Shown here in pieces: positions 25,848 through 39,071 of a DNA stretch of 64,000 nt. The stretch's first letter is position 1. Each line of letters begins with the position of its first letter. The DNA is taken from positions 1,088,001 to 1,152,000 of the forward strand of contig CAWEPZ010000011.1 of NCBI GenBank assembly GCA_963811105.1. Direction: 5' to 3'. The translations under genes were made by a program, and so were the position numbers. The notes beneath the pieces are model-generated. The model did no database searches and had not been told where the DNA came from. It saw only the letters and a list, made by a program, of their open reading frames with translations. Origin of the DNA: Candidatus Bathyarchaeota archaeon. Lineage in GTDB: Archaea; Thermoproteota; Bathyarchaeia; Bathyarchaeales; Bathycorpusculaceae.

Positions 25848-25943
25848 AACATTCTCTTGATAGAATTTGGCATGAATTGGCTTATATGCTTCTCCATAAA
25901 TAAACTAAACAACTAAAAACCTTGCGAATTTAGGTTGAATATT

Positions 25944-26870
25944 ATGACTGAAACAGTTCGTGTTACAGCTGAGCGCATTAGAAAACTCGAAGTTCAAGGA
26001 GCAAGAAATGTAGCAATAGCTGCCGTGAAAACTCTCCAAACTCTAGCTGAGCAAACCAAGGCAAAAAATAAGACTGCATTAGTAAACGAGCTTAAAGAAG
26101 CGCAGGCTTTGCTTTTTGCATCAAGGGAAACTGAGCCACTTATGAGGAATGCTGTTCGCTGGGTAATAACTCAAGCTCAAGAGGGCAGCAATGAAAAAGT
26201 TGAAGCAATTGCCGAATTGGTTATTGGAAATGCAGGTTTGTTTCTGCAAAATCTCGATGCCTCAAGAGAATGCACAGCTGAAATAGGTTCAAAGCGAATA
26301 CGGGACGGTATGCTAGTATTAACTCATTGCCACTCATCAACAGTTACGCGCATGCTTGCCAAAGCCAAAGCTGACGGCAAAAACTTTAGCGTAATTTGCA
26401 CTGAAACCCGACCCGCTTTTCAAGGTAGGATAACGGCACGGGAAATGGTTGAGCTGGGGGTTGAAACCATGTTTATTGTTGATTCAGCCGCCCGATCATA
26501 TATGGGAAATGTTGACCTTGTTGTTGTTGGCGCGGATGCCATAACGTCCGAGGGCAATATAGTTAACAAGATTGGCACTAGCAGCATCGCCGTTTTAGCC
26601 AATGAAGCTAGAAAGCCCTTCTACGTAGTCTCGGAACTGCTAAAGTTTGATCCTGAAACACTGTTTGGGGAGTATGAACGAATTGAGCACCGAAGCCCTG
26701 CTGAAGTTTGGACGGAAGCGCCAGAAAAACTATCAGTGCGCAATCCGGCTTTCGACGTTACCCCAAGCCGATATATCAGTGGGCTTATCTGCGAGGAAGG
26801 TGTGATCGCGCCTCAGTCTGTAGCTGAAGTTATGCTTAGAGCTTATCCTTGGGCATTTAAGGGCACCTAA
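25944..26870 (+). CDS. Ribose-1,5-bisphosphate isomerase (eIF-2B family)
   Basis: VQGARNVA, THCHSS, ETRP, GADAI, NKIGT, NPAFDVTP; adjacent to RuBisCO. Confidence 0.9.
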   Translation: MTETVRVTAERIRKLEVQGARNVAIAAVKTLQTLAEQTKAKNKTALVNELKEAQALLFASRETEPLMRNAVRWVITQAQEGSNEKVEAIAELVIGNAGLFLQNLDASRECTAEIGSKRIRDGMLVLTHCHSSTVTRMLAKAKADGKNFSVICTETRPAFQGRITAREMVELGVETMFIVDSAARSYMGNVDLVVVGADAITSEGNIVNKIGTSSIAVLANEARKPFYVVSELLKFDPETLFGEYERIEHRSPAEVWTEAPEKLSVRNPAFDVTPSRYISGLICEEGVIAPQSVAEVMLRAYPWAFKGT

Positions 26871-28090
26871 GCTTTCCAATACTCCAAAGCAGCCTTCAAC
26901 TCTTTGTGTGTTTCAGCGTATTCTTTCAGCGTCTTTTCTTTCAGGATTGCGTCTACGGCTTGCCTCATCGCTTTTGCCCCTGCCACTGTGCCGTCCGGGT
27001 GCCCGTGGACGCCACCCCCTGCTTGAAGGACCACATCATTGCCAAACGTTTCCATAAGCGCAGGAACCAGCCGTGGGTGCAATCCGCCTGAAGCAACAGG
27101 CAAAACAGGCTTCAAACCTCCCAATTCAGCTTTACAAGCATCGATATTTTCAAGCACTTCTGCTCTGGTTTCGCTCATTTTTCCAACAACCGTGCCCACG
27201 TGGAGTTGGTCTACGCCGATTACTCTTGCCACAGTTGCAATGGGACGCATAGCGATACCATGCAGCGGGTTTTTTGTGAAAGCAGCGTGTCCCGCACGAT
27301 GCGCATGAATGACAAGTTTGCTGGTTTGGTCTCGCAGCGTTTGGAGGGCTGACCAGCCGCAAGTTAAGATGTCCACCATAACGTATTCGCCGCCTTGAGC
27401 AAGGACAGTTTCTGCACGTTTCAGCATAAGGTTGGTTTCAGCGGTGATGTTTATCATGTAGACTTTGCGTTCACCCGTTTCTTGCTGGGCTTTGTCTCTT
27501 TTTTCCAAAGTTTGCGAAAGGCGATCATCGAAAGGATTGAATTTTTGACTGCTCAAGTTTTCGTCGTCTTTGACGATGTCGCAGCCGCCGCTCCATGCAT
27601 CGTAAGCGACTATAGCGTGGTCTTTTGTGTTTAAGCCCAGTTTAGGTTTGATTATTGTGCCAACCAAGGGGCGCTTTGGAATTTTTAGGAGTTTGCGGAT
27701 TCCAGCTATGCCGTAGCTGGGTCCTTTGAAACCGTCTATTAGCGCTTTGGGCATTTGGATATCAAGCAAGCGCAGGTTTTTGAGTGCTTTAAGCCCGAAC
27801 ACGTTTCCCGCCACACTGCTCAATATATTAGGCATGTTTGCTGGCTCAAAAAGCTCAATGGGATAAGCGATTTTGGCTATGTCACCTTCGAGGCTGAAAA
27901 CCTGAGCTGCCAACCTATCGACATAGGGTTGCTCAGTTGTTAGCTGCGTCCATGTACCTACGGAGCTTTCTGCTGCTACGCCCCCTGCTGCTTCTTTGAG
28001 GCTGAATCCGTCGGGCTCCAAGAAGAAAGTGCAGATTAAGTCGGTTTCTTTTAATTTGTAAGTTGGATTTAAAAAGTCAAGGTACTTCAA
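26867..28090 (-). CDS. rbcL: Ribulose-bisphosphate carboxylase, form III
   Basis: AESSVGTW, KPKLG, DIVKDDEN, HAHRAGH, HVGTVVGKM, ASGGLH, GGGVHGHP all intact. Confidence 0.95.
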   Translation of the reverse strand: MKYLDFLNPTYKLKETDLICTFFLEPDGFSLKEAAGGVAAESSVGTWTQLTTEQPYVDRLAAQVFSLEGDIAKIAYPIELFEPANMPNILSSVAGNVFGLKALKNLRLLDIQMPKALIDGFKGPSYGIAGIRKLLKIPKRPLVGTIIKPKLGLNTKDHAIVAYDAWSGGCDIVKDDENLSSQKFNPFDDRLSQTLEKRDKAQQETGERKVYMINITAETNLMLKRAETVLAQGGEYVMVDILTCGWSALQTLRDQTSKLVIHAHRAGHAAFTKNPLHGIAMRPIATVARVIGVDQLHVGTVVGKMSETRAEVLENIDACKAELGGLKPVLPVASGGLHPRLVPALMETFGNDVVLQAGGGVHGHPDGTVAGAKAMRQAVDAILKEKTLKEYAETHKELKAALEYWKA

Positions 28091-28175
28091 AGAGTTTCAT
28101 TCCAGCTCTATTGTGACTGGGTTTTGCTTAAAATCTTTAACTATACGCGCATCTTACAATAATCGAGTGTCCTGC

Positions 28176-29720
28176 ATGCAACTTACCGTTGAAGTTTTAA
28201 TGATCACTACTGGAGGAAGCAGAATCGCTATATTAAGCGAAGAAAGCGCCAGCCTCTTGGGCGTACACAGTTCAGATAGAATACGGATAATACGTAGCAC
28301 CAAAGAAATGATAGCTATTGCAAATATAGCGTCTCATTTTCCTAAAAATCGCATTGGACTCTACGAAGAAACCGCTTTGGCGCTTGGAGTAAAAGATGAC
28401 GAAACTGTTAATGTGCAGCTAGCGCCACTTCCCGAATCACTTTTTAATGTTCGTGCAAAATTGCATGGCGAACGTTTACGTGAAACAGACATAATCACAA
28501 TCGTTAACGATGTTGTTGAGCGACATTTGAGCACAGTTGAGATTGCAGCCTTCTTAACTGCTCTTAGCATTCACGGCTCAAGCGCTAGCGAAAACGAGGC
28601 CTTATCAAGGGCTATGGTTGCATCCGGCAAAACTCTCAGTTTCGGCGAAGGCCCCATCCTAGACAAGCACAGTGTAGGTGGAATACCGGGCGACAAAACC
28701 AGCATGATTGTCGTGCCAATAGTAGCCGCGGCAGGATTCACCATACCTAAAACTTCTTCACGCGCTATCACATCACCTGCTGGAACCGCTGACAGAGTGG
28801 AGACTTTGTGCCCTGTCAACTTATCTATTAGTGAGATTAGGGATGTTGTTGCAAAAACTAATGGATGTTTGGTTTGGGGTGGCTCGTTGGAGCTTGCACC
28901 AGCTGACGACCTTTTCATTCAAGTTGAGTATCCACTTGGAATTGACCCCATGCTTTTGCCCTCGATTCTTAGCAAGAAAAAAGCTATTGGAGCAACCCAC
29001 GTGGTCATCGACATTCCCACCGGCATGGGTGCAAAAATCAAGACACGTACTGAAGCTTATGTTTTGGCTTCGGATTTTGTTGATTTGGGGAAACGTTTAG
29101 GCTTAAACATTCAATGTGCCTTGACATTTGGTGACCAGCCATTAGGCTGCAGCATTGGACCTGCTCTTGAAGCGCAAGAAGCCTTGTCAACCTTGATGGG
29201 TGCTGGACCTTCTGACCTAAGGGAAAAAGCTGTCAGCCTTGCAGGTATGCTTTTCGAGATGGTTGGAGCTGAAAACGGACAAGCTAAAGCAGAAGAAATG
29301 CTTGATTCAGGCAAAGCAGAGGCAAAAATGCGGGAAATTATTGCAGCTCAAGGTGGAAATCCAAAGGTTAAACCTAATGAGATTCCTGTTGGCGCTGAAA
29401 TGGCTGAAGTTCGTTCTGAACACGCTGGTAAAGTCATATGGCTAAGCACTGCAGACATTGTGCGTATAGCACGCGAAGCCGGAGCGCCAAAAGAGAAAGG
29501 CGCAGGCTTGGTGTTGCACTCAAAATTAGGCGAAACTGTTCACAAAGACGATGTTCTTTTCGAAATATATGCTGAAAGAGGCTGCAAGTTGACTTCAGCG
29601 TTGGAGCTTGCCAAAAAGTTGTCGCTCATTGTTCTCACTAAGAAGCCTGCGGAGAAGATGATTTTGGACAGGGTGCCTGAAAAGCTCGCTCATGAAAAAA
29701 CCTTCATGCTAGATAGGTAA
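28176..29720 (+). CDS. deoA: AMP phosphorylase
   Basis: DKHSVGGIPG, PKTSSRAITSPAGTAD, N-terminal double-psi-barrel extension. Confidence 0.93.
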   Translation: MQLTVEVLMITTGGSRIAILSEESASLLGVHSSDRIRIIRSTKEMIAIANIASHFPKNRIGLYEETALALGVKDDETVNVQLAPLPESLFNVRAKLHGERLRETDIITIVNDVVERHLSTVEIAAFLTALSIHGSSASENEALSRAMVASGKTLSFGEGPILDKHSVGGIPGDKTSMIVVPIVAAAGFTIPKTSSRAITSPAGTADRVETLCPVNLSISEIRDVVAKTNGCLVWGGSLELAPADDLFIQVEYPLGIDPMLLPSILSKKKAIGATHVVIDIPTGMGAKIKTRTEAYVLASDFVDLGKRLGLNIQCALTFGDQPLGCSIGPALEAQEALSTLMGAGPSDLREKAVSLAGMLFEMVGAENGQAKAEEMLDSGKAEAKMREIIAAQGGNPKVKPNEIPVGAEMAEVRSEHAGKVIWLSTADIVRIAREAGAPKEKGAGLVLHSKLGETVHKDDVLFEIYAERGCKLTSALELAKKLSLIVLTKKPAEKMILDRVPEKLAHEKTFMLDR

Positions 29721-31930: not shown

Positions 31931-33358
31931 TTATTTATTGTCTGTCAGATATTGATGCATTGCTTTTGCCGCGCGTTTGCCTGCGCCCATTGCGCTGATG
32001 ACTGTTGCTGCTCCTGTAGCTACGTCCCCGCCTGCGTAAACTCCATCTAAGCTCGTTTTGCCTACTTCGTTGACGCATATTGTTCCGTGTCTTGGGTCGC
32101 TTTGTAAGCCGTCTGTGGTTCGCTGTATGATTGGGTTTGGTGTTTGTCCGATGGCAACGATTACTGTGTCAACATCCATTGTGAACTCGGAGCCTGGAAT
32201 CTCTTTTACGCCACGCCTACCTTTTGCGTCAGGTTCAGTGAGTTCCATTGCGATGCATTTCATGCTTTTAACCCAGCCTTTCTCGTCACCGTAAAACTCG
32301 ATTGGTGCACCAAGGAACTTGCAGACCAAGCCTTCTTCTTCGGCATTCTCGACTTCTTCATGTCTTGCAGGCAGCTCAGCGCGTGAACGTCTGTAGAGTA
32401 AACAGACTTCAGAGCCAAGTCTCATGCTGCTTCTTGCGCAGTCCATGGCAACGTTTCCGCCGCCGATAACAACTACTTTTTTGCCTATGCGTATTGGAGT
32501 GTCAGATTCGGGAAACTGGAATGCCTTCATAAGATTAACGCGTATCAGGAACTCGTTGGCTGAGTAGATTCCGCCTAGGTTTTCTCCTTTGCAACCTGTG
32601 AATTGCGGTAAGCCCGCACCGCTTCCAATGAATACTGCGTTGTAGCCGCCTTCTTTCATGAGTTCGGGAATGGTGTGGATTCTTCCAACGAGATTGCCTA
32701 GGCGCAAGTCAACGCCCAGTTTCTGGATATAGGTTATTTCGTTTTGTACAATGGCCTTTGGTAAACGGAACTCTGGAATACCATATGACAACACACCGCC
32801 GCCAACATGCAACGCCTCAAACATTGTTATTTCGTGACCAAGCTTCACCAGGTCAGCCGCCGCTGTTAATCCTGCAGGGCCAGCTCCGACAATTGCTACT
32901 TTCTTGCCTGTTGCCGCTGCTTTAGGTGGAAGCGCGGATCCGTTATCACGTTCCCAATCTGCCAGAAAACGTTCAAGTCGTCCGATGCTAAGTGGGTCAC
33001 CTACTTTTCCAACGATGCATTTAGCTTGGCATTGTACTTCTTGAGGGCAAACTCTACCGCAAACTGCTGGCAACGCATTCTTCGATTTTATTAGAGCAAT
33101 GGCTTCAGCATACTTCTTGTCTCTAAACAGTTTAATGAATTCTGGAATAGGGACTTCCACTGGGCAACCAGTCATACATTGAGGCTTTGGACACTTTAAG
33201 CATCGACTTGCTTCTTCCTGTGCTTCTTCTTCAGTGTACCCTAAAGCAACTTCACTAAAGTTTTTAGCGCGTACTTTAGGCTCTTGCTTTGCCATTTCAA
33301 CAGCTTTCTTATTCAACTTTGGTTTAGGCTTTGCTTCCGCCACATTTACAACCTCCAT
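31931..33358 (-). CDS. nfnB: NfnB/SudA (GltD-like) large subunit of NADH-dependent ferredoxin:NADP+ oxidoreductase
   Basis: RCLKC..C..GCP, CGRVCPQE.QC, GAGPAG, YGIPEFRLP, GGGNVAMD. Confidence 0.9.
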   Translation of the reverse strand: MEVVNVAEAKPKPKLNKKAVEMAKQEPKVRAKNFSEVALGYTEEEAQEEASRCLKCPKPQCMTGCPVEVPIPEFIKLFRDKKYAEAIALIKSKNALPAVCGRVCPQEVQCQAKCIVGKVGDPLSIGRLERFLADWERDNGSALPPKAAATGKKVAIVGAGPAGLTAAADLVKLGHEITMFEALHVGGGVLSYGIPEFRLPKAIVQNEITYIQKLGVDLRLGNLVGRIHTIPELMKEGGYNAVFIGSGAGLPQFTGCKGENLGGIYSANEFLIRVNLMKAFQFPESDTPIRIGKKVVVIGGGNVAMDCARSSMRLGSEVCLLYRRSRAELPARHEEVENAEEEGLVCKFLGAPIEFYGDEKGWVKSMKCIAMELTEPDAKGRRGVKEIPGSEFTMDVDTVIVAIGQTPNPIIQRTTDGLQSDPRHGTICVNEVGKTSLDGVYAGGDVATGAATVISAMGAGKRAAKAMHQYLTDNK

Positions 33359-34169
33359 CCATTTCCCACAATACTGAACTTAATCTTTCTTCAGGCAACA
33401 TTGTGCGTTGACGTATAATTAACTCGTCAAAGTCAGTTTTGTGACCATCAAATTCTGGACCATCAACGCACCCGAATTTCATTTTGCCATCAACTGTAAC
33501 CCTGCAAACACCGCACATGCCCATACCATCAATCATTATGGGCGTCAAGGTTACAATTGTTGGAATGCAATAGGGCTTGGTTATTTCACTAACATCCTTC
33601 ATTAGGATAACTGGACCCATTACAACGCAACGGTCAAACTTTTCCTTTTTCAACAAATCTTTGAGGAAATCCAATCCTTTGTAACCTTTTGTTCCATCGT
33701 CGGTTGCAACATAAACTTTATCACTTAGGGCATTAGCTTCATTTTCCATCATTATGAATTCCTTCGTTCTTGCACCAAGAATTGTGGTAACTTGATTGCC
33801 TGCTTCTTTCATAGCTTTAGCCTGCAACAGCAAAGGTGCAATCATAACACTTCCACCGACACAGAGAACTTTGCCGAAGTTTTTGACTTCAGAAGGATTG
33901 CCAAGTGGACCAGTAACATTGTCAAGACATTCGCCTTGGTTTAGTAAACCTAAAGTTTTGGTTGTTTTGCCAACTTCATGAAATGCAAATGATACGGTTC
34001 CTTTTGCCTTGTCATATCCGCAGATTGTCAACGGAACACGTTCTCCAGTTTTGCCGTGTATAACGATTAGAAATTGTCCGGCTTGAGCTTTAGCAGCAAT
34101 GTCTGGAGCGTCAACTTCAAACAGTTTTATTTTTGGTGCTAGTTCCGTTTTAGTTACTATTTTGTACGT
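33324..34169 (-). CDS. nfnA: NfnA/SudB small subunit (FAD, 2Fe-2S); no canonical start, ACG at 34169 or fused to the upstream ORF
   Basis: Frame open from TYKIVTKTELAP...GQF...GERVPLT; DGMGMCGVCRV...GCVDGPEF. Confidence 0.88.
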   Translation of the reverse strand, partial: TYKIVTKTELAPKIKLFEVDAPDIAAKAQAGQFLIVIHGKTGERVPLTICGYDKAKGTVSFAFHEVGKTTKTLGLLNQGECLDNVTGPLGNPSEVKNFGKVLCVGGSVMIAPLLLQAKAMKEAGNQVTTILGARTKEFIMMENEANALSDKVYVATDDGTKGYKGLDFLKDLLKKEKFDRCVVMGPVILMKDVSEITKPYCIPTIVTLTPIMIDGMGMCGVCRVTVDGKMKFGCVDGPEFDGHKTDFDELIIRQRTMLPEERLSSVLWEMDGGCKCGGSKA

Positions 34170-35401
34170 TTTGCAGTCGCCTCCACAGCTATTTCACGTT
34201 TAGGTAACTCTGAAATTCTCTTATAGAAAGCATCAAGTTTTGCATTGAAGTCGCCCTCGCATCGTGGTGACTCCTCATAGAGTTCGAATCGATCAAGCAG
34301 ACCCTTCTTCTTTAGCACATTTATCATTACGCCCAAGTTGCGCTCTGCAGTATCTCGTCCTTCTTGAAGCTTACAATCTTTAGATGAACAAACGACCGCC
34401 ATGACACCATCAAATCCGCAGTTCAACGCATTGACCACGTGCACTGGATCAAGGGATTTGAAGCATGGAACCTCAAGTGCCAAAACATTTTTCCCTGCAA
34501 ATACGCTATTCGGGTTATCTAAGGCCGAAAATTCTGACCATTGACAAACAAACGCAAGAACCGCTGGTCCTTTGTTCTTGGCTTTTAATATAGCTGCAGA
34601 ACTTCCATAACGGTCAACTACATTTTCAAACTCGAATCCTTTCACTTGAATAGCATGATGCGGACAAACCAATTGGCAAGCGCCACAGCCAACACATTTC
34701 TCCTCATTTACTTTTGGAGTAGCAAACGACTCAAACTCAATTGCGTCGTATGGGCAAATAAAGATGCATTTATCACAGCCCACGCATGCTTGAACATCAT
34801 AAACAGCTTTGCGTGAAAACTTTACAACTCTAATTGCATTGTCATCAAAACCCAGTTGTTTGAGAACACTTCTTGCTAAGACAAGTCTTCGAGTGTTAAT
34901 TTTCGTTCCTTCTTTGTAGCGGCAGAATGGATCTTCACATTGAACGGAAACAATGTTTTTTACTCCTGAATTCAATGCTTCAAAAATAAAGTCCGTCGGA
35001 ACTCTTCCAGCACACGGCAACCGCAAGGCAATGTAGTTGTTAACTTTTAGACCTTGCTCTTTAAAGATGTCTTGAACTTCTTCCGTTGAAGGTGAGTTTC
35101 CTCTGCACATCAAAACAAGCGTGTCAACGCCGCTTTTGGCTTTGGCAAGTGCATCTTTAACATATTTTGAAAGATTATCGTAAGTATAATATTCCATTTT
35201 TATGGCTGCAGATGGGCAAGCACTGTAACAGATACCGCAAACCTGGCAATCCTGACTGTTAATTTCCACTTTTCCAGCTGAATCAGCCTTTATGGCTTCA
35301 TAAGGACAAATTGATTTGCAAACATAACATCGGCTACATAAGTCTTGATCGATTTCCACTACAGCGAGACATTTTTCACTCATGATGAAACCTCTTTCCA
35401 T
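34157..35401 (-). CDS. Tandem ferredoxin-MvhD-ferredoxin-MvhD iron-sulfur protein
   Basis: Four CxxCxxCxxxCP motifs; two MvhD/FlpD-like units (LMCRG..RLPCAGRV..C....C and FVCQWS..VPC..C....C). Confidence 0.82.
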   Translation of the reverse strand: MERGFIMSEKCLAVVEIDQDLCSRCYVCKSICPYEAIKADSAGKVEINSQDCQVCGICYSACPSAAIKMEYYTYDNLSKYVKDALAKAKSGVDTLVLMCRGNSPSTEEVQDIFKEQGLKVNNYIALRLPCAGRVPTDFIFEALNSGVKNIVSVQCEDPFCRYKEGTKINTRRLVLARSVLKQLGFDDNAIRVVKFSRKAVYDVQACVGCDKCIFICPYDAIEFESFATPKVNEEKCVGCGACQLVCPHHAIQVKGFEFENVVDRYGSSAAILKAKNKGPAVLAFVCQWSEFSALDNPNSVFAGKNVLALEVPCFKSLDPVHVVNALNCGFDGVMAVVCSSKDCKLQEGRDTAERNLGVMINVLKKKGLLDRFELYEESPRCEGDFNAKLDAFYKRISELPKREIAVEATAKRTK

Positions 35402-35498: not shown

Positions 35499-36440
35499 CT
35501 ATTTTTTGTAATAGGGTCGTTTGATGAAGCTGTAGGCTTCGAGGGCTGCAGTGATGCCTTGGCCAACGGCGGTACCTACTTGTTTTATGGGTTGGTCGGT
35601 TACATCGCCTGCTGCAAAGATTCCAGGGAGGTTTGTTTGTTGACGATGATCAACTTTGATGTATCCGTGCTCATCTGTTTCTACTCCAGCAGCCTTGGCG
35701 AGTTGGCTGTTGGGAGCTTCACCAATTTGCACAAAAACTGCATCAACCTCTAATTCAAAGGTTTTGTTAGTAATGTTATCTATTAAAGTGACCGTTTTGA
35801 CTTGTTTGTCGCCTTTAATTTCTTGAATTTCAGTATTCCATATTATGTTGACATTGCTTTTTGCCGATATGTCAGTCACTAAACTTTCTTCAGCTCTGAA
35901 AGCTTGCCTCCTATGGATCACAGTAACCTGCGAAGCCAACCCTGAAAGGTAAAGTGTAGTGATACAAGCAGTGTTTCCACCGCCAACAACAAGCACTCGT
36001 TTGCCCTTAAAAAAAGGTCCATCACAAACGCCACAATAGCTTACTCCCCTACCGCGGAAGTCTTTTTCTCCTTTGACACCGACTTCTTTGTAATGCGACC
36101 CTGTTGAATAGATTATTGCCTGAGCCTCATAAGTTGTTCGTGAAGTTTTAACAATTTTCTTTTCACCCATAATCTCTAACTCATTAACAGACTCTAAGTC
36201 GTGAATTGTTGCGCCGACCTTTCTGCAATGTGAAGCCATTTTTTCCGCAAGCTCTCCACCACTGATTTCGGCAAAACCGGGGTAATTCACAACTGTTGAA
36301 GCGTCAGCTATTGTTCCTCCGGCAAATTTCTCATCTAAAATCAGCGTGGTTAATCCGCTTCGGACAGTATAGATTCCAGCTGACAGCCCTGCGGAGCCAG
36401 CACCGATTATTATTATGTCCCAGTTCTCCATAAACGGCAT
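35499..36440 (-). CDS. trxB: Thioredoxin reductase
   Basis: GAGSAG, GRGVSYCGVCDG, GGGNTA, HRR, FAAGD. Confidence 0.92.
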   Translation of the reverse strand: MPFMENWDIIIIGAGSAGLSAGIYTVRSGLTTLILDEKFAGGTIADASTVVNYPGFAEISGGELAEKMASHCRKVGATIHDLESVNELEIMGEKKIVKTSRTTYEAQAIIYSTGSHYKEVGVKGEKDFRGRGVSYCGVCDGPFFKGKRVLVVGGGNTACITTLYLSGLASQVTVIHRRQAFRAEESLVTDISAKSNVNIIWNTEIQEIKGDKQVKTVTLIDNITNKTFELEVDAVFVQIGEAPNSQLAKAAGVETDEHGYIKVDHRQQTNLPGIFAAGDVTDQPIKQVGTAVGQGITAALEAYSFIKRPYYKK

Positions 36441-36562: not shown

Positions 36563-38323
36563 TTGGGAAGATATAGGTGCACAGTTTGCAATTATGTCTA
36601 TGATGAAGTTAAAGAAGGAAAGAAATTTAGTGATTTGCCTAAAGAGTGGGTTTGCCCAGTTTGTGGAGCGCCTAAATCAGTTTTTGTACTCTTAACTGAG
36701 CAGGTTGAAGAGAAAAAAGTTGACCGTACTGTTTCTCAAGTTCTCATTGACCAAATCGCCGCTTGGGGAGTACAATACGTCTTTGGTATACCTGGTACTT
36801 CAACACTTGGCATCGTTGACGCAATACGGAAAAGCAATGGTAAAGTCAAGTATTTCCAAGTCAGACACGAGGAAACCGCTGCATTTATGGCTTCTGCATA
36901 CGGAAAACTCACTGGGCATGTTTCCGCTTGTCTGGGAATTTCTGGCCCCGGCGCAACAAACCTGGCAACTGGCTTATACGATGCAAAGCTTGATCATTCG
37001 GCGGTTTTAGCCTTAACAGGAATGGTGCCAAGACCACAGATTGGTACAGGTTCAATTCAGGAAGTTGACCAATATGCCTTTTTCCAGCCAGTGTGTGTTT
37101 TTAACAGCGTTCTAATGGCGGAGAATCAAACAACTTCGGTTGCCACTTTGGCAATTAGGCATGCACTTTTGAATCAGGGGGTCGCGCATATTGGTATTCC
37201 AAATGATTTGCAGAAGTTGCATTACGAAACTGCGATTTTGCCGTTTGAGGGCAGAATGCCTAATCTTGCTTATGGTCAGGAAGGATATGTGATTGAGAAG
37301 GCAGCAAGCGTTGTTGACGAATCGGTTAGACCTGTTATTCTTGCAGGTTTCGGATGCCGAGGTCAAGGCAACAAACTTCTGAAGTTAGCTACAAAGATTT
37401 CTGCTCCAATAATAACAACATTTAGAGCAAAAGGTGTTATTGACGAGCATGAAGCGTTGGATGTTGGTTGCCACGGTGGAGTTGGTTCGACTGCGGCTGC
37501 AGAGCTTATGCAAAAAGCTGATTTGCTCATAGCTATTGGTGCTTCGTTTTCTGATTTATCGTTAATTCCTCAGAAAAAAACTGTTCAGATTGATATTAAT
37601 CCACTAATGGTTGCGCGCCGTTACCCAGTTGAAGTCGGATTGATTGGCAACAGCGCCGTGCTGATTCCAAAGTTAACGGAGAAAGTTCATGAAAAAGAGA
37701 ATGCAGATTATTTGGCTGAGATTATTAGGTTGAAGCGAGATTGGTTAAATCAACTGGGAAGAGAAGCCGACTCAGCCTCGACGCCTATTAGGCCTCCTTA
37801 CATAATTAAGGTGTTGAATGACAAAGTCTCTGACGACGCTGTGATTTCTTTGGATATTGGTGAGAACTGTTGGTGGTTTGGCAGGAATTTTATGATGAAG
37901 AAATCGCAGAAATTTGTGATGAGCGGCGCATTGGCTTCAATGGGTTTTGGTTTGCCGGGTGCTATGGCTGCTGCATTGGCTTATCCGAACCGCCAGATTG
38001 TTTGCCTGACGGGTGATGGTGGGTTAACGATGGTTTTAGGCGACTTTCTAACCGCGTTGAAGTACAAATTGCAGGTTAAAGTCTTCGTTATGAACAATAA
38101 ACGACTTGGAATGATTATGCAGGAGCAAAAGGTTGAGGGTTATGAGAGCTGGCAAACGGACTTGTATGACTACAATTTCGCTGATTTTGCTGAACACTCA
38201 GGCGGCATGGGCATTAAAGTGACTGAGCCAAGTGAGCTTGAATCAGCCGTTGATAGGGCGCTCTCAGCCAAGGTTCCTACGATTGTAGATATTGATACGG
38301 ATCCAAGAAGATTCTTAATGTGA
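36563..38323 (+). CDS. Rubredoxin-fused TPP enzyme (pyruvate oxidase-like)
   Basis: CTVC...CPVCG rubredoxin; RHEE, GPGATN, GDGG...NN TPP motif. Confidence 0.88.
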
Positions 38324-38992: not shown

Positions 38993-39071
38993 TGGTAGCG
39001 GGGAATAGATTTGAACTATCGATCTCTGGGTTATGAGCCCAGCGGGTTAATCCTGGCTACCCCACCCCGCT
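38993..39071 (-). tRNA. Initiator tRNA-Met(CAT), CCA encoded
   Basis: A1-U72 pair, GGG/CCC anticodon stem with CTCATAA loop. Confidence 0.95.

Follow-up and report, generated by a model that had tools for sequence, protein, structure and literature searches.

An operon of a doubled ferredoxin-MvhD protein and NfnAB in Bathyarchaeia: a probable third Nfn subunit and a likely ACG start codon

Bathyarchaeia have a conserved operon, trxB-(Fd-MvhD)2-nfnA-nfnB, in which the two genes of the electron-bifurcating transhydrogenase NfnAB follow a gene for an iron-sulfur (Fe-S) protein made of two ferredoxin (Fd)-MvhD units. It is described here from a 64,000-nucleotide (nt) stretch of Candidatus Bathyarchaeota archaeon DNA (GenBank assembly GCA_963811105.1, contig CAWEPZ010000011.1, positions 1,088,001 to 1,152,000), called the window below; the genome under study is denoted G000 and its contigs C10, C11 and so on. 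The Fe-S protein, NfnA and NfnB are three separate proteins from one operon, with no fusion of the Fe-S protein and NfnA, and nfnA is very probably translated from an ACG codon. Together they would form an Nfn variant with a probable third Fe-S subunit. That this subunit would wire NfnAB to the hydrogenase module MvhAG, possibly replacing NAD, has in our judgement about an even chance of being correct.

Bathyarchaeia abound in anoxic soils and sediments; the question addressed is how they balance NADPH, ferredoxin and H2. The source archaeon comes from soil or peat. Full-text literature that covers few subscription journals yielded no title or abstract dealing with a doubled Fd-MvhD protein, with an Nfn-MvhD operon or with ACG starts in archaea, and the term 'Nfn' is absent from the main text of two Bathyarchaeia genome papers and from a supplementary file of PMC11697101.

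Conservation of the operon and separation of its genes

On the minus strand of the window, trxB (36440-35499) is followed by the Fe-S open reading frame (ORF; 35401-34157), nfnA (to 33324) and nfnB (to 31931). Linkage and start codons were scored in 80 genome loci (the nfnA codon in 79), and nfnA lies directly after the Fe-S gene in 79 of them, the remaining locus ending at a contig edge. It also adjoins in 24 of 25 loci with the Fe-S gene in a family-wide set of one genome per genus, and in all eight loci from other families (43-59% identity). The linkage, for which a preliminary description of the window had proposed a synteny check, is thus conserved across the order. The trxB gene is found in 74 of the 80 loci, usually 100-130 nt upstream of the Fe-S gene, and adjoins in just three of the eight other-family loci. 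Three records titled Acidoferrum, Limnocylindrales and Methanocella (L040, L080, L090) contain the Bathyarchaeia operon at 76-87% identity, a likely result of mis-binning or mis-naming.

The preliminary description had reported a 414-amino-acid (aa) ORF with four [4Fe-4S] motifs and two MvhD/FlpD-like units overlapping nfnA, a co-oriented trxB upstream, and no hdrA or hydrogenase gene in the window. All of this was confirmed: the ORF has four CxxCxxCxxxC motifs, both FlpD/MvhD matches exceed the Pfam cut-off, HdrA lies on C10 and the group-3 hydrogenase, the only type checked, at C11:258-264 kb. The same description considered the two genes translationally coupled or fused, and noted that one extra A at ~34170 would give a single chain of ~690 aa. 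The two frames do lie one base apart, and a single extra base would join them. However, no fused gene was found among the loci with both genes (79, 24 and 8 in the three sets), and ACG is kept where the upstream gene ends before it. An MvhD domain is absent from the best 120 of 2,042 longer NfnA homologues, and homologues of the Fe-S protein measure 402-414 aa in the best 120 of 1,503. A joined frame of 720 aa in genome G379 proved to be an artefact of a scaffold N-gap.

Neither did the suspected sequencing error withstand comparison with independent data. Contig 11 of the independent run X10 covers 34076-34295 with three differences, none at the ACG, and without an insertion or deletion; contigs of runs X1 and X3 reach the ACG at most 13 letters from their ends and show no difference, and X9 has no cover there. 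The same assembly does contain an apparent one-base error, at the start of the gene for subunit A of the A-type ATPase, but ACG stands in 59 loci of other species as well as in the independent contig, and nfnA is full length and conserved. The probability that the ACG or a missing base reflects an assembly error, or that nfnA is a pseudogene, is next to nil. At the ATPase gene itself (G000:C2:568238-569495) a CTG start was considered and rejected: it is not conserved, four relatives having ATG or GTG two codons before that position, and the more likely cause is a one-base error of the assembly.

ACG as the start codon of nfnA

As first described, nfnA has no in-frame ATG, GTG or TTG at its expected start. 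Its frame is open from 34193, and the first such codon is a TTG at 34031 (codon 47). The codon aligned with the methionine of relatives is an ACG (34167-34169), the putative start of a 281-aa product (33324-34169). Ten nt ahead of it, within the Fe-S gene, stands the Shine-Dalgarno (SD) motif GGAGG (34180-34184), complementary to the 3' end of the genome's 16S rRNA. The Fe-S gene ends at a TAG (34159-34157) 10 nt past the ACG and overlaps the first 13 nt of nfnA. A standard gene caller drops 46 NfnA residues here, part of the FAD domain.

Among the 79 scored loci the codon at the Met position is ACG in 59, ATG in 16, GTG in two, and TTG and CTG in one each, with no other Thr codon. A second draw of 30 loci, from genomes partly shared with the first set, gave 22 ACG, six ATG and one GTG among 29 scored. 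The family-wide set has ATG in 14 loci, ACG in eight (two of them with a canonical codon shortly upstream) and GTG in two; all eight other-family loci have ATG or GTG. SD spacing is the same across ACG, ATG, GTG, TTG and CTG loci. All three bases of the ACG, the rarest Thr codon of the genome, are invariant in 58 of 58 loci (L107 left out), while all four Thr codons are found at nine conserved Thr columns of nfnA. The Tyr2 codon is TAC or TAT in 77 of 77 loci. On an NfnA tree built with FastTree, ACG and canonical states are interleaved. Three of the 79 loci are weaker cases, with an in-frame GTG shortly upstream (at -2 in L107, at -6 in L068 and L112).

Some loci keep the ACG although their upstream gene stops earlier (L053, L068, G029), and others (L061, L099) despite an in-frame stop two codons ahead of it; a conserved frameshift is thereby ruled out. 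A -1 frameshift programmed at the A-rich run and joining the Fe-S protein and NfnA into ~690 aa is therefore highly improbable, even though a tetramer, A-AAA, stands before the ACG in 52 of 58 loci (judged by the -3 base) and an upstream SD-like motif can stimulate -1 shifts in bacteria. The ACG is also kept where the tetramer is broken (L100, and six loci without A at -3), the junction has no heptamer and no strong 3' hairpin, and lineages without ACG have fixed ATG, GTG or TTG, never a fusion.

NfnA could instead begin at ATA, its fourth codon, which overlaps the upstream stop as ATAG, or mRNA editing could turn the ACG into AUG. The ATA is present in 57 of 58 ACG loci versus 11 of 19 canonical-start loci, and editing would be invisible in DNA. 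However, the SD motif would lie 19 nt from the ATA, Tyr2 upstream of it is conserved as TAY, one locus (L079) has ACG and no ATA, and the hflX gene described below shows ACG without an ATAG overlap. We know of no mRNA editing in archaea, and both variants are improbable.

The unrelated gene hflX has an ACG start in 28 of the best 30 of 37 family matches, the other two having ATG and ACA. Its ACG mostly stands behind GGAGG-like motifs, and an in-frame stop lies directly ahead in G000 and in three loci. In G000 this codon is at C11 1154760 on the minus strand, ~2.8 kb past the end of the window; the matches are loci L327-L356. When G000 was compared with 1.6 Mb of the G014 sequence (736 pairs), hflX was the only convincing further ACG case; the comparison missed nfnA itself, so it is insensitive. 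Across the genome, SD plus ACG was not in excess (4 of 98 positions, with a background of 166 of 10,246), and the initiator machinery showed no sign of alteration: aIF1 is encoded, and the genes for tRNA-Met and tRNA-Thr look normal. On sequence grounds, ACG starts are rare but recurrent in this lineage. Two other ORFs of G000, nusA-like at C1:43306 and metY-like on C2 (names from translations), have CTG and ATA, respectively, behind a strong SD motif, and no canonical start is close by.

Of the ACG loci, 55 of 59 retain the upstream stop at +10, versus 7 of 19 canonical loci, which fits dependence on termination-reinitiation; relatedness could also explain it. Passages of PMC6728339 describe coupling of overlapping genes with internal SD motifs in Haloferax and E. 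coli, and the overlap and SD motif seen here are consistent with translational coupling. The ribosome would end the Fe-S gene at the TAG, be held by the internal GGAGG, and initiate nfnA at the ACG with initiator Met-tRNA; we infer both the reading as Met and the coupling to termination. ACG thus appears to behave as a near-cognate start: it aligns with Met, keeps its SD spacing, exchanges only with start codons, shows no synonymous drift and recurs in hflX. What had seemed a trace of fusion is very probably the conserved start codon of the lineage, and such starts are relevant to archaeal start-codon selection and annotation.

The doubled protein, its NfnAB and their partner

The longest Fe-S ORF encodes 414 aa from 35401, but its start is more probably the ATG at 35383, giving 408 aa (34157-35383) with four Fer4 and two FlpD matches in Pfam. 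Ferredoxin domain 1 (35216-35338) is followed by MvhD-like unit 1 (34793-35059; PF02662, 50.9 bits), and ferredoxin domain 2 (34664-34786) by MvhD-like unit 2 (34205-34561; PF02662, 74.7 bits). Each ferredoxin domain has two CxxCxxCxxxC motifs, and both MvhD units exceed the PF02662 cut-off and keep all four Cys across 30-40% identity; four [4Fe-4S] and two [2Fe-2S] clusters are predicted. An AlphaFold2 model from a 30-row alignment has a mean predicted local distance difference test value of 91.2, and its best Foldseek matches are the MvhD chains 5ODC_D and 7BKB_F (template-modelling score 0.79 on the target). The HdrA2 family NF040770 matches twice, each time by its C-terminal tail only (model positions 572-774), and the Fe-S protein lacks the thioredoxin-reductase-type FAD domain of type Ia HdrA, with no Pyr_redox match. 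By these comparisons the protein is a tandem copy of the ferredoxin-MvhD tail of HdrA.

The duplication is old, since first units group together and second units likewise across archaeal and bacterial members of the tree. A derivation of unit 2 from an Nfn-linked HdrA tail was rejected: pair scores favour it (267-279 versus 139-154), but every single tail tends towards unit 2, and no such grouping appears in the tree. In a phylum draw of 301 genomes, with six candidates scored per genome, 16 matched, all from one order; clusters of look-alikes in the atlas belong to Bathyarchaeota, Chloroflexota and Methanobacteriota. A distant bacterial clade was sampled by 80 metagenome loci, Chloroflexota-like, with positional counts taken from loci with room. 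Here metV lies directly downstream in 56 of 59 loci, the gene follows mvhD in 27 of 55 and mvhA in 11 of 21, and none of the 80 loci has hdrA. The doubled protein would therefore be a reusable adaptor rather than an Nfn-specific one. One such locus (L198:1408-11580, with related loci in L140-L216) reads mvhG-mvhA-[response regulator::GltD-like flavoprotein::ferredoxin]-hyaD-mvhD-(Fd-MvhD)2-metV-hypF; the odd fusion of a receiver domain to a GltD-like enzyme occurs in 4 of 21 loci with room. Some homologues of the doubled protein (P0009, P0017) carry a ~120-aa, winged-helix-like C-terminal extension.

By sequence, the NfnAB pair carries several marks of NfnI. The nfnA homologue (PRK06222 over cut-off; 5JCA_S, E 1.9e-77) lies directly upstream of a gene with Fer4_20 and Pyr_redox_2. 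The latter, nfnB (31931-33343; 4YLF_B, E 2.6e-165; 5JCA_L, E 3e-150), encodes 470 aa, probably from the GTG at 33343 rather than the ATG at 33358, as GTG is found in 66 of 68 scored loci. NfnB has an extended N-terminus and, in the alignment to 5JCA_L, Arg193 and Arg327 at the places of Pyrococcus furiosus Arg201 and Arg333; passages of PMC12221290 name a long NfnB N-terminus, both arginines and an upstream nfnA as marks of NfnI. NfnA has the FAD domain and the Asp/3-Cys [2Fe-2S] motif (residues 214-222 and 234). Position 109, the second Gly of the NAD-domain loop, is nevertheless replaced by Met, Trp or Phe in all 100 linked rows (Met109 here). The Gly is present in each of 8 stand-alone paralogues and in 119 of 120 fused NfnAB proteins; Pro115, Ser207, Asn209 and Gln64 are also changed in the linked clade. 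With these changes the linked NfnA may have lost NAD binding. For NfnII of P. furiosus, passages of PMC12221290 describe an NAD(H) site that is occluded and a partner X of unknown identity. A second nfnAB of G000, at C11:82 kb, stands alone.

The two copies of the HdrA tail, with MvhD as a socket, make a two-socket cable the most likely arrangement, one side of which would sit on NfnAB and the other on MvhAG hydrogenase; in other lineages the second side would sit on MetVF or an Hdr module. MvhD serves as such a socket for donor modules, MvhAG among them, in Hdr complexes. The cable may attach to NfnA and take the place of NAD(H) as its high-potential partner, as has been proposed for NfnII/Xfn, because the NfnA clade has altered several otherwise invariant NAD-domain residues. 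Cellular potentials are ~-370 mV for NADPH, ~-450 to -500 mV for ferredoxin and ~-300 mV for low-pressure H2. With these values NADPH against ferredoxin plus H2 is near equilibrium, while H2 standing in for ferredoxin could not, together with NADH, drive the reduction of NADP+, and attachment on the NfnA side is therefore favoured. The net reaction would be 2 NADPH -> reduced ferredoxin + H2, or the reverse. In its full form, a three-subunit, NAD-independent Nfn in which NfnB would bifurcate NADPH electrons to ferredoxin and NfnA would pass the high-potential electron through the cable to the [NiFe] hydrogenase, the proposal is possible, if tentative. We infer binding, partner, electron path and direction, the partner and the mechanism from gene context. 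A complex prediction for NfnB (5-458) and the Fe-S protein (4-395) scored 0.00; its controls also did not fold, so it is evidence neither way.

Gene context points to MvhAG. In three of the 80 loci the operon itself contains mvhG-mvhA, placed after trxB and ahead of the Fe-S gene, and mvhA precedes the gene in the 11 of 21 bacterial-clade loci noted above. Within the genus, Mvh-type MvhA is present in 26 of 28 genomes with the Fe-S gene versus one of eight without it, the two exceptions being 66 and 71% complete. These eight also lack the linked nfnA, except G033, which has an HdrA::MvhD version.

Several observations weigh against this partner or against loss of NAD. Two genomes, G054 (100% complete) and G057 (85%), have the operon and no VhuA match, so MvhAG is not obligatory. 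The eight genomes without the gene are probably one clade, as their stand-alone NfnAs group together, so the co-occurrence with MvhA possibly reflects one event; the rows behind all counts are related genomes and partly duplicates, and the split between Mvh-type and Hox-type is based on E-values and the two G000 copies, not on a tree. The Mvh locus of G000 contains hdrC-hdrB, and an HdrA-MvhD fusion is encoded on C10, so MvhAG already has its textbook partner. Finally, nfnA adjoins the gene in just one of the 80 loci of the distant bacterial clade, the other NAD-domain motifs of NfnA are intact, and Nfn-linked HdrA tails are not sister to unit 2 in the tree. The hydrogenase region (G000:C11:258337-267763) reads hoxE-F-U-Y-H and then hdrC-hdrB-mvhG-mvhA, without mvhD or hdrA in the cluster; the hox and hdrBC names are from translations, not from a family scan.

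The preliminary description had suggested that the cable could link NfnAB to an HdrA-type flavoprotein encoded elsewhere, a reading in which nfnA would still start at ACG. It gains from three genomes, G033, G024 and G042 (L253, L254, L255), with the order hdrA'-hdrA::mvhD-nfnA-nfnB, a split two-part HdrA with fused MvhD directly ahead of nfnAB. In the tree their NfnA falls within the linked group and away from the stand-alone paralogues, and G024 has both this version and the doubled-MvhD operon; in every locus retrieved, the linked NfnA clade follows a gene ending in Fd-MvhD. In L107, an hdrA and an hdrD-like gene stand ahead of trxB and the operon in the same orientation; hdrA occurs in two of the 80 loci. 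An FlpD match is present in 61 of 61 genomes, and the two operon genomes named above lack a VhuA match. On the other hand, the HdrA-type ferredoxin domain in cis should fill the HdrA-facing side of MvhD, the one HdrA found in G000 has its own fused MvhD, hdrA is absent from the 80 bacterial-clade loci, and the nearest context is MvhAG. An HdrA partner is thus conceivable from the three genomes, and on the whole doubtful for the doubled protein.

The Fe-S protein might also be a dedicated polyferredoxin-like shuttle for an ordinary NfnAB, forming no stable complex and changing partners between lineages. The occurrence of the same family beside metV and mvhD in the Chloroflexota-like loci and in one Bathyarchaeia genome would suit this. 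It is unlikely, however, as both MvhD units keep all four Cys despite their divergence, the linked nfnA is missing wherever the Fe-S gene is missing (save G033), and the linked NfnA clade carries substitutions of its own. The altered NfnA and the conserved third subunit bear on what replaces NAD in Xfn-type enzymes. If the NAD-independent Nfn with MvhAG as partner were true, it would provide these enzymes with the sort of protein partner that is being sought, and would join parts of the Nfn and Hdr/Mvh bifurcating families under translation from an archaeal ACG start.

Neighbouring genes and comparison with known systems

The first co-oriented gene, trxB (35499-36440, minus strand), encodes a thioredoxin reductase (TIGR01292 over cut-off). 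Divergent from it, a plus-strand gene (36563-38323) encodes rubredoxin fused to a pyruvate-oxidase-like thiamine pyrophosphate enzyme, and such a gene also lies beside the operon in L050, L063 and L074. An initiator-like tRNA-Met(CAT) gene (38993-39071, minus strand) lies 2.6 kb from trxB, probably by coincidence. On the other side, the translations of 25935-29720 resemble what we take to be ribose-1,5-bisphosphate isomerase, form III RuBisCO and AMP phosphorylase. A promoter and terminator scan with bacterial-type models stayed at chance level (10 versus 8.1 and 4 versus 5.3).

Near-cognate initiation at ACG is known from eukaryotes and their viruses. The nfnA start resembles it in having ACG at the Met position, and differs in being archaeal, SD-led and fixed across genera. 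It shares overlapping genes and an internal SD motif with prokaryotic termination-reinitiation, although the overlap is 13 nt here and usually 1 or 4 nt.

With NfnI (Thermotoga maritima 4YLF/4YRY; P. furiosus 5JCA) the system shares nfnA before nfnB, an NfnB with Fer4_20, Pyr_redox_2, a long N-terminus and both FAD-side arginines, and the Asp/3-Cys [2Fe-2S] motif of NfnA. Unlike NfnI, it has a conserved, overlapping Fe-S gene upstream, an nfnA that would start at ACG, and an NfnA with Met, Trp or Phe for the second loop Gly and changes at Pro115, Ser207 and Asn209.

The Fe-S protein resembles MvhD and the tail of type Ia HdrA (5ODC_D, 7BKB_F, 8RVU_F; NF040770) in fold, in four Cys per unit and in the order of ferredoxin and MvhD; it differs in its tandem duplication, the lack of a FAD-binding HdrA core, 20-24% identity to solved MvhD and its encoding with nfnAB. 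In the Flx system FlxA is NfnA-like and FlxD corresponds to MvhD. FlxABCD-HdrABC and HdrABC-MvhD-MetVF, the latter described in passages of PMC5736913 and PMC5861303, likewise use MvhD as adaptor to a non-hydrogenase module; those contain a full HdrABC, whereas the present operon has a complete NfnAB pair and no hdr gene.

NfnII/Xfn of P. furiosus (5VJ7) is similarly an NfnAB pair, with a small subunit that deviates from NfnI in its NAD domain. Its substitutions are different, the present NfnA is closer to NfnI (E 1.9e-77 versus 1e-51), and the present operon itself encodes a candidate partner.

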